The notes below the pieces were generated by a model. That model searched no databases, was not told the origin of the DNA, and saw only the letters and a program-made list of their open reading frames with translations. DNA of 64,000 bases, from assembly GCF_053078305.1 (NCBI RefSeq), contig NZ_CP166879.1, one strand, 5' to 3'. The position numbers were made by a program, and so were the translations under genes. This document shows positions 2,263-2,327 of the stretch, in pieces; the stretch's first letter is position 1, and each line of letters starts with the position of its first letter.

Positions 2263-2327
2263 TTTCACCTGATTTCACGTGATTTCGCTTAATTTCACAA
2301 AAATCACCTTCTTTCACCTTCTTTCAC
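2263..2327. repeat. Array of six (A/C)TTTCAC direct repeats spaced about 10 bp apart
   Basis: The sequence reads atttcacctgatttcacgtgatttcgcttaatttcacaaaaatcaccttctttcaccttctttcac. The helical-phase spacing suggests a protein-binding array, for example for Int arm-type sites, Xis or a regulator. Confidence 0.45.

Follow-up and report, generated by a model that had tools for sequence, protein, structure and literature searches.

In a 64-kb window of E. coli DNA (64,000 nucleotides in all), we observed that a PICI-like island at the ileX tRNA gene carries a helically phased array of seven hexamer units, and that the GTGAAA reading of this array is the same 10-bp-phased (G/C)TGAAA motif that is found in the segment from +1 to +90 at the left end of Sp18-type Mu-like prophages. 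By analogy with phage Mu, the array may be a pac-type site that copies the left-end repeats of a Mu-like phage and that would be bound by the small terminase of this phage, acting as helper; we put the probability of this reading at roughly 0.4. The most probable reading of the island as a whole is that it is a satellite of Mu-like phages of the Sp18 type. In addition to the array, the two have in common a tRNA-like element, an activator of the Mor family and a box that resembles a late promoter.

The original prediction described six TTTCAC repeats spaced 10-11 bp apart. The exact hexamer occurs in the array five times on the + strand (at 2263, 2273, 2293, 2312 and 2322 of the 64-kb window), and the gaps between these copies are filled by the variants TTTCGC (2283) and AATCAC (2302). 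The count of six is thus obtained only if TTTCGC is included, and the array from 2263 to 2327 is better described as seven units, with start-to-start spacings of 10, 10, 10, 9, 10 and 10 bp; the helical phasing stands, with a measured period of 10 bp, once 9. On the + strand the array reads ATTTCACCTG ATTTCACGTG ATTTCGCTTA ATTTCACAAA AATCACCTTC TTTCACCTTC TTTCAC, and on the - strand, in the GTGAAA reading, GTGAAAGAAG GTGAAAGAAG GTGATTTTT GTGAAATTAA GCGAAATCAC GTGAAATCAG GTGAAATAAT, followed by GATACCC. Its predicted position between the tRNA-like elements and the Mor-like gene was confirmed (Table 1).

The array is real and non-random. Tandem Repeats Finder reported it as two period-10 arrays (2262-2298 and 2304-2327). 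The 5 copies of TTTCAC observed per 70 bp compare with a maximum of 3, seen once, in 300 dinucleotide-preserving shuffles of the window; TTTCAC was also the sole hexamer of at least 3 different letters that reached at least 4 copies per 70 bp anywhere in the 64 kb. When clusters of any hexamer were scored in 100 shuffles, the best cluster per 70 bp reached 4 copies six times and 5 never. No match to the array region was found by BLAST in collections of phages and plasmids. A pattern scan of genomes and viral contigs for four phased TTTCRC units gave, among the matches listed, unrelated 10-bp tandem repeats from many phyla and no island relative. We know of no direct-repeat site of CpxR, OmpR, PhoB, IHF or Fis that fits the array. 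Cooperative binding by a protein is still the most reasonable reading of such phasing, although the proteins named as candidates in the original prediction mostly fail, as described below.

The window corresponds to the yqjI-yqjH / ileX / mug-rpoD region of E. coli; farther along it are sibD/E and the FMN riboswitch of ribB. In island-free genomes, window position 1733 is joined directly to the 3' end of ileX, and the island is bounded by the imperfect att repeats TGGCCCTGCTG (1731-1741) and TGGCCCCTGCTG (10535-10546). Its order is int, a hypothetical gene, the alpA-like gene, C4 RNA/Icd-like repeats, DUF4222, the RepA-type helicase and the ori iterons, and then SSB, PerC, Mor, the array and the tRNA-like genes; the Mor gene is immediately upstream of the array, which is located some 520-590 bp inward of the distal junction of the island. 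Searches with Pfam and PHROG profiles found no capsid, tail, terminase or lysis genes in the island. The island thus has the layout of a PICI: 8.8 kb in length, with att repeats, int, an alpA-like HTH gene and a replicase with iterons, and free of virion genes. PerC is encoded by some E. coli PICIs (PMC6092414).

Table 1. Coordinates of features in the island; positions refer to the window except where a sister island (L002, L003) is named
Feature	Position	Strand	Remarks
PICI-like island, 8.8 kb, at ileX tRNA	1731..10546	all genes -	
GTATGCCTTTTT, two copies	1804-1827 and 10389-10412		both island ends, 60-140 bp from att core
Two tRNA-like genes, downstream of array	1985-2066 and ~2090-2184	-	Rfam tRNA, 35 and 20.6 bits
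Weak sigma-70-like promoter candidate for the tRNA-like genes	2193..2221	-	read from sequence
AATGATACCCGTTC	2241..2254	-	directly after last array unit
Seven-unit array, proposed pac-like site for helper phage protein	2263..2327	-	non-random; matrix and local alignment
Mor-family late activator	2462..2869	-	Pfam Mor, 82 bits; PHROG 'late transcriptional activator'
SSB and PerC genes		-	
AGTGAGTA iteron field	3920-4120		after RepA/AAA_25 helicase
RepA/AAA_25 helicase	4119-5516	-	
DUF4222 gene		-	
AlpA/excisionase-type HTH protein	7826-8029	-	
ATATTCCGCAATGCC-N19-TATCCT	8080..8120	-	upstream of alpA-like gene, after terminator; 3 mismatches
298-aa protein		-	function unassigned
Integrase	9068-10348	-	
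Iteron field, island L003	4770-5010		
Iteron field, island L002	12660-12920		

The left end of the Sp18-type prophages was found in 232 genomes, inserted at a wide range of sites, and because these insertions are many and independent, the left terminus can be fixed at T(G/A)TAACC. Among 7 variants, the segment from +1 to +90 was invariant apart from 4 single-base variants, and identity was about 70% just beyond it. Written in tens, this segment is TGTAACCAGG TGAATCATTT GATACCGACG AGGGTTTTAG TGAAAGGAGG TGAAATCACC TGTAAGATAC TGAAATAAAA CAGGTGATG, with the phased units GTGAAT at +10, GTGAAA at +40 and +50, CTGTAA at +60 and CTGAAA at +70. The left end also contains three TTTGATAC(C/T) sites, at +18, +112 and +164, and the right end of an intact prophage (L179) contains three such sites in inverted orientation, spaced like Mu R1-R3, and no GTGAA. 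The six sites are arranged like L1-3 and R1-3 of Mu and are thus the transposase sites. Because the right end has these sites without GTGAA, the GTGAAA repeats are left-end specific and separate from the transposase sites. Of the prophage copies we examined, that of strain STEC2018-607 (L179) is intact, and that of O157:H7 strain NE1092-2 (L006 44560-44900) is right-truncated, with mom and the right-end transposase sites missing.

Left-end specificity is a hallmark of pac in phage Mu. The Mu pac site, which we take to lie at nt ~32-58 of the left end, between L1 and L2, was reportedly mapped by Groenen & van de Putte in 1985 and by Harel et al. in 1990. The motif of the Sp18-type prophages is found in the corresponding location, at the left end only and between L1 and L2, and their GTGAAA repeats could accordingly be placed as a candidate pac by position in Mu, whose own pac sequence is unrelated. 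The gp27-family protein of the helper (WP_000360582.1 or WP_000360581.1) is a small terminase (phrog_426). Repressor binding was rejected as a function of the motif: the c-ner operator region of the helper does not contain it.

The resemblance between the array and the left end was assessed in several ways. A 10-bp matrix was derived from the seven island units only, and its score, summed over four phased units, was computed at 365,286 positions, drawn from host DNA, from the island outside the array and from two complete prophages. The two left ends ranked first and second, with 34.5 and 29.0 bits; the best unrelated site scored 21.0 on a background with a mean of -21.5 and a standard deviation of 8.5. 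When the array was aligned locally to both strands of a 47-kb prophage locus, the best alignment fell at +34 to +78 of the left end, with 32 of 44 positions matching, ungapped and in register, and a score of 33 as compared with 26 for the next alignment and a best score of 27 in 53 kb of host sequence; when the left end was shuffled 2000 times, 33 was never reached. When the left end was that of L179 (GGTAAAATCAC), the alignment score was 27, which only ties with background, and in a rough count of GTGAAA matches across five phased units the left end did not stand out (a tie at 22/30). The order of elements also differs, in that the phage has GTGAAT and a TGATACC site before the repeats and the island has TGATACC after them.

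The same similarity bears on a second possibility, namely that the array is a decoy for a factor, of the helper or the host, that occupies the L1-L2 spacer during transpososome assembly, and that it titrates this factor so as to disturb replication of the helper, or senses the helper, and has no part in packaging. In Mu, the L1-L2 spacer is bent by HU as the transpososome assembles. The array resembles the left-end repeats, and the TGATACC that adjoins it resembles the core of the transposase sites; within the segment that directly follows the last array unit, CAGGTGAAATAATGATACC resembles by eye the terminal CAGGTGAATCATTTGATACC of the helper, its L1 transposase site. However, the right end also enters the transpososome and yet has no repeats, the left-end specificity is that of pac in Mu, and we know of no accessory left-end binding factor for Sp18-type prophages. 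We consider a decoy function distinctly unlikely.

We compared the island with its relatives to determine what the array does and does not travel with. Of 5426 complete E. coli genomes, 13 contained the Mor-array region. Their islands are integrated at ileX, within mdtP or between yicC and dinD, which makes three sites in all. In the island located between yicC and dinD (L002), the array was near-identical, with 1 spacer substitution over 2258-2332, while the integrase was only 29% identical to that of the window and the AlpA-like HTH protein had no significant similarity to its counterpart in the window. The mdtP islands L001 and L003 carry the array with 0 and 2 changes, respectively. Three types of replicase were found among these islands, RepA/AAA_25 in the window, toprim/DUF927 in L002 and a D5_N/DUF5906 primase in L003, and directly downstream of each is a different iteron, AGTGAGTA for RepA/AAA_25, GGTAGACAG for D5_N/DUF5906 and GGTGGGAAC for toprim/DUF927. 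These replicase-adjacent iteron fields (Table 1) are likely to be replication origins. The TTTCAC array is 1.8 kb from the iterons and is constant across the replicase types. It travels only with the module that comprises SSB, PerC, Mor and the tRNA-like genes, independently of the integration and replication modules.

These observations bear directly on the proposals that the array consists of RDF or Int arm-type sites of attP, or of origin iterons. The array does occupy a distal position in the island; helically phased direct repeats serve as binding sites for P2 Cox and 186 Apl, and phased repeats also make up iterons. The array resembles the Cox, Apl and lambda Xis arrays in having direct repeats about one helical turn apart, which in those systems are bound cooperatively by a small protein. 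In contrast to them, as arrays that lie in the P arm near the core and are specific for Int or RDF, the island array is independent of Int and AlpA. Int arm binding, one of the functions originally suggested, is disfavored by the near-identity of the array beside an integrase of 29% identity, and by its distance from the att core, which exceeds 500 bp and takes in the two tRNA-like genes; sites for Xis/RDF or AlpA, also suggested, are disfavored by its near-identity in L002 despite the unrelated AlpA-like protein there. As an attP array for RDF or Int, it was rejected at 520-590 bp from the att repeat and with no co-variation with Int or RDF; as origin iterons, it was rejected in view of the separate, replicase-specific iteron fields, which adjoin the replicase and co-vary with it, and of its own constancy across three replicase types. 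All of these readings are thus disfavored because the array fails to co-vary with their proteins, and we regard them as very improbable. The GTATGCCTTTTT pairs appear to be better candidates for arm sites than the array: GTATGCCTTTTTGTATGCCTTTTT is identical near both junctions, and its copies are probably integrase arm-type sites. GTATGCCTTTTTGTATGCCTTTTT is missing from the yicC-dinD island, whose integrase is a different one.

Of the proteins encoded in the island, Mor and PerC alone are found wherever the array is found, and Mor belongs to a family of DNA-binding late activators. A Mor-regulated promoter was among the functions originally suggested, and the constant association of Mor with the array agrees with it. 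The island Mor is 47% identical to the single Mor/C-family gene product of the prophage, which is encoded just upstream of the lysis genes; the next Mor representative found in a library of 1.8 billion representatives was 40% identical. The two late promoters of the helper, one before lys and the other before the protease gene I, have the common box CTGAWATYCCGCAAARCC-N20-TAYGCT, and no match to this box within 3 mismatches was found near the array. With the helper lys/I box as the reference, rather than a box of the island Mor itself, the array thus lacks the sequence of a Mor/C-dependent promoter. Moreover, characterized Mor/C proteins recognize an imperfect dyad just upstream of the -35 element and not long direct-repeat arrays. 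The only island match to the helper box is at 8103-8120, upstream of the alpA-like gene (0.41 matches are expected by chance per window). Its resemblance to the helper late-promoter box and -10 element is suggestive, and the segment from 8080 to 8120 may be the point at which the Mor/C protein of the helper induces the island. We give little credence to the view that the array is a set of operator or activator sites for the island's own Mor or PerC.

Downstream of the array are the two tRNA-like genes, neither of which was called by ARAGORN; in sister islands, PGAP labels such genes tRNA-Tyr and tRNA-OTHER. The first (1990-2062) is 86% identical to a 'tRNA-OTHER' of STEC Mu-like prophages and the second is 80% identical to a prophage variant in an O91:H21 strain. 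In the prophages, tRNA-OTHER is antisense and located between an F-like minor head gene and G (L006 24623-24702; L005 3997-4084). A role of the tRNA-like genes as a tRNA decoy or in anti-defence is possible. Their copy number varies from 1 to 3 among sister islands.

A candidate promoter for the tRNA-like genes follows the array directly and has the same orientation, which raises the possibility that the array is an upstream activating element, composed either of curved, phased A/T tracts or of sites for an activator of the host or the island. This promoter would consist of a -35 element TTTACC (2221-2216), a 17-nt spacer and a -10 element TACTAT (2198-2193), which would put the array at roughly -78 to -142. 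The two hexamers are the same in all six variants while the 17-nt spacer varies, the tRNA-like genes are always accompanied by the array, and short A-tracts phased at 10 bp are typical of curved upstream DNA. On the other hand, the promoter is weak, with a score of 8/12 that is below the threshold of the promoter scan, which missed it, and the tracts of the array are mostly only 3 A long. An activating function would also have to account for the motif at the left end of the helper, where there is no downstream gene to activate, and curvature alone leaves the match of the island matrix to the phage left end unexplained. In the balance, we judge such an upstream element to be unlikely, though less so than the other alternatives considered here.

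We also asked whether the island and the prophage occur together. Strain STEC2018-607 (NZ_CP075697.1), for example, has both elements, the island at about 3.434 Mb and the prophage at 2.9336-2.9730 Mb. A chimeric query, made up of the island Mor-array region and the prophage left end, matched 234 genomes: the island was present in 13 and the left end in 232 of 5426 (4%), and 11 of the 13 island-bearing genomes had both, figures that agree with the matched places per record. The remaining two island-bearing genomes were without the prophage left end. A naive Fisher test of this co-occurrence gave p = 5e-14, with kinship ignored and with both elements common in STEC; if a prophage rate of 30% in STEC is assumed, p = 7e-5, again with kinship ignored. 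The islands span three insertion sites and three replicase types.

Conservation of the array is of little help in choosing among the readings. The original prediction named absence of the array from related elements as grounds for giving it up; the array was present in all six island variants examined, at 93-99% identity. The numbers of variable columns in the six variants (5/75 in the array, as compared with 8-14% in the flanks) represent no clear excess of conservation, and the variants are too close to one another to provide evidence of selection. Because the known islands are 93-99% identical at the array, conservation cannot separate the rival explanations, and a test across distant relatives was precluded because a search with the Mor protein gave only one cluster at 50% identity (4 word-index matches). 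The array could accordingly be viewed as a non-functional, recent tandem duplication, generated by 10-bp slippage and kept through the recent kinship of the islands. The absence of a clear conservation excess is compatible with this view, units 1 and 2 are identical 10-mers, and unrelated 10-bp TTTCRC tandem arrays exist in many genomes. Against it, the spacers differ while the hexamer is kept, which is unexpected from recent slippage, the motif matches the invariant left end of the helper, and island and helper co-occur. Neutral duplication is, in our judgment, improbable.

If the array is indeed a pac-type site, the following sequence of events can be envisioned. Induction of the helper would lead to excision of the island and to its replication from its own origin. 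The gp27-family small terminase of the helper would bind the seven phased units, and the terminase would cut nearby on the Mor side, at a distance of some tens of bp by analogy with Mu. Packaging would then proceed in the GTGAAA direction through the tRNA-like genes and att and around the circle or concatemer, until the head was filled with several copies of the island. In the integrated state, the predicted direction of packaging points out of the island. Concatemers or a redirection of capsid size would be needed to fit 8.8 kb to a headful of ~38 kb, and we saw no sign of either in the sequence.

The proposed site can be compared with several known packaging systems. It resembles Mu pac in that the helper motif, with its units from +40 to +80, is a left-end-specific cis element between L1 and L2, and in the headful terminase packaging proposed here. 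It differs from Mu pac in sequence, which is unrelated, in the location of the island copy away from any transposon end, and in comprising seven units, as compared with about four or five, within an integrase-mobilized island. At the left end of Mu itself (L182 44-67), phased GGAT elements occur at +44, +54 and +64 (GGATTATTCG GGATCTGATG GGATTAG), beside pac, and it may be that Mu-type pac sites are generally composed of short phased repeats. A search of E. coli genomes for satellite-borne copies of the Mu left end gave only genuine Mu/D108-type ends. In P1, pac consists of clustered hexamer repeats (TGATCA/G), Dam-regulated and in two clusters around the cut site. As is proposed for the island, P1 pac and other pac or cosB sites use several short direct repeats as a terminase array; the P1 repeats have no sequence relation to those of the island.

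Among satellites, EcCICFT073, a cos-type PICI, is similar to the island in having int, alpA and a replicase-ori, with PerC in some such elements, and its cosB is its own recognition site for the helper terminase, the function proposed here for the array (PMC6739421). The E. coli cos-PICIs have lambda/80-type cos sites with cosQ and cosN, and their Rpp protein re-targets TerS (PMC6739421). The present island has no lambda-type cosN, and no recognizable Rpp or TerS was found in it with Pfam and PHROG profiles. The cos-PICI model was rejected for this island in view of the missing cosN; unlike the cos-PICIs, moreover, its presumed helper is a Mu-like headful phage. A closer parallel in this respect is provided by PmCI172 and PmCI86, PICIs of Pasteurella multocida with a Mu-like helper (PMC6092414). 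Like the island, with the helper presumed for it, PmCI172 is a PICI-type satellite paired with a Mu-family myovirus; unlike the island, and as compared by description, it belongs to another genus, has a capsid homologue and forms small capsids (PMC6092414).

Packaging of satellites by Mu-like phages has thus been reported for one pair, in Pasteurella, with no mechanism given (PMC6092414). We suggest, tentatively and at rather less than even odds, that a family of E. coli PICI-type satellites, which integrate site-specifically and replicate themselves, parasitizes Mu-like prophages by means of multimerized left-end pac repeats, together with a late-promoter box of the helper type, which would tie them to the late program of the helper, and a Mor protein of their own. 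Such mimicry of pac would be a new variation on the known strategies of satellite packaging. If the proposal is correct, the array would be a concrete cis element for hijacking a Mu-type terminase, and it would locate the pac, so far unmapped, of Mu-like prophages that are common in Shiga-toxin-producing E. coli. It would also imply that a short repeat array can divert a Mu-type headful terminase to non-transposon DNA, which matters for transduction in STEC, and would offer a route by which a PerC-encoding island spreads among STEC, PerC being a regulator family tied to expression of the LEE virulence genes.

Two further features of the island should be recorded. A GATACCC-type motif is present in three copies that bracket the tRNA-like genes, AACGGGTATCA at 1861-1871 and 2241-2251 and an inverted, imperfect copy, GATACCCTT, at 1836-1844. 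The core TGATACC is common to the island GATACCC copies and to the six transposase end sites of the helper, TTTGATAC(C/T), and by eye the island sequence TTTGCATGTGCACATTGATAC (1881-1861) resembles the R2 site of the helper, TTTGCATTTCATTTGATAC. The segment from 6200 to 7650 consists of three tandem units of ~457 bp, each with a match to C4 antisense RNA (72-78 bits) and an Icd-/Ash-like ORF, and looks like a triplicated immunity or antisense module of the P4/P1 type; a single isrK match, at 7462-7538, lies within this triplicated C4 region.
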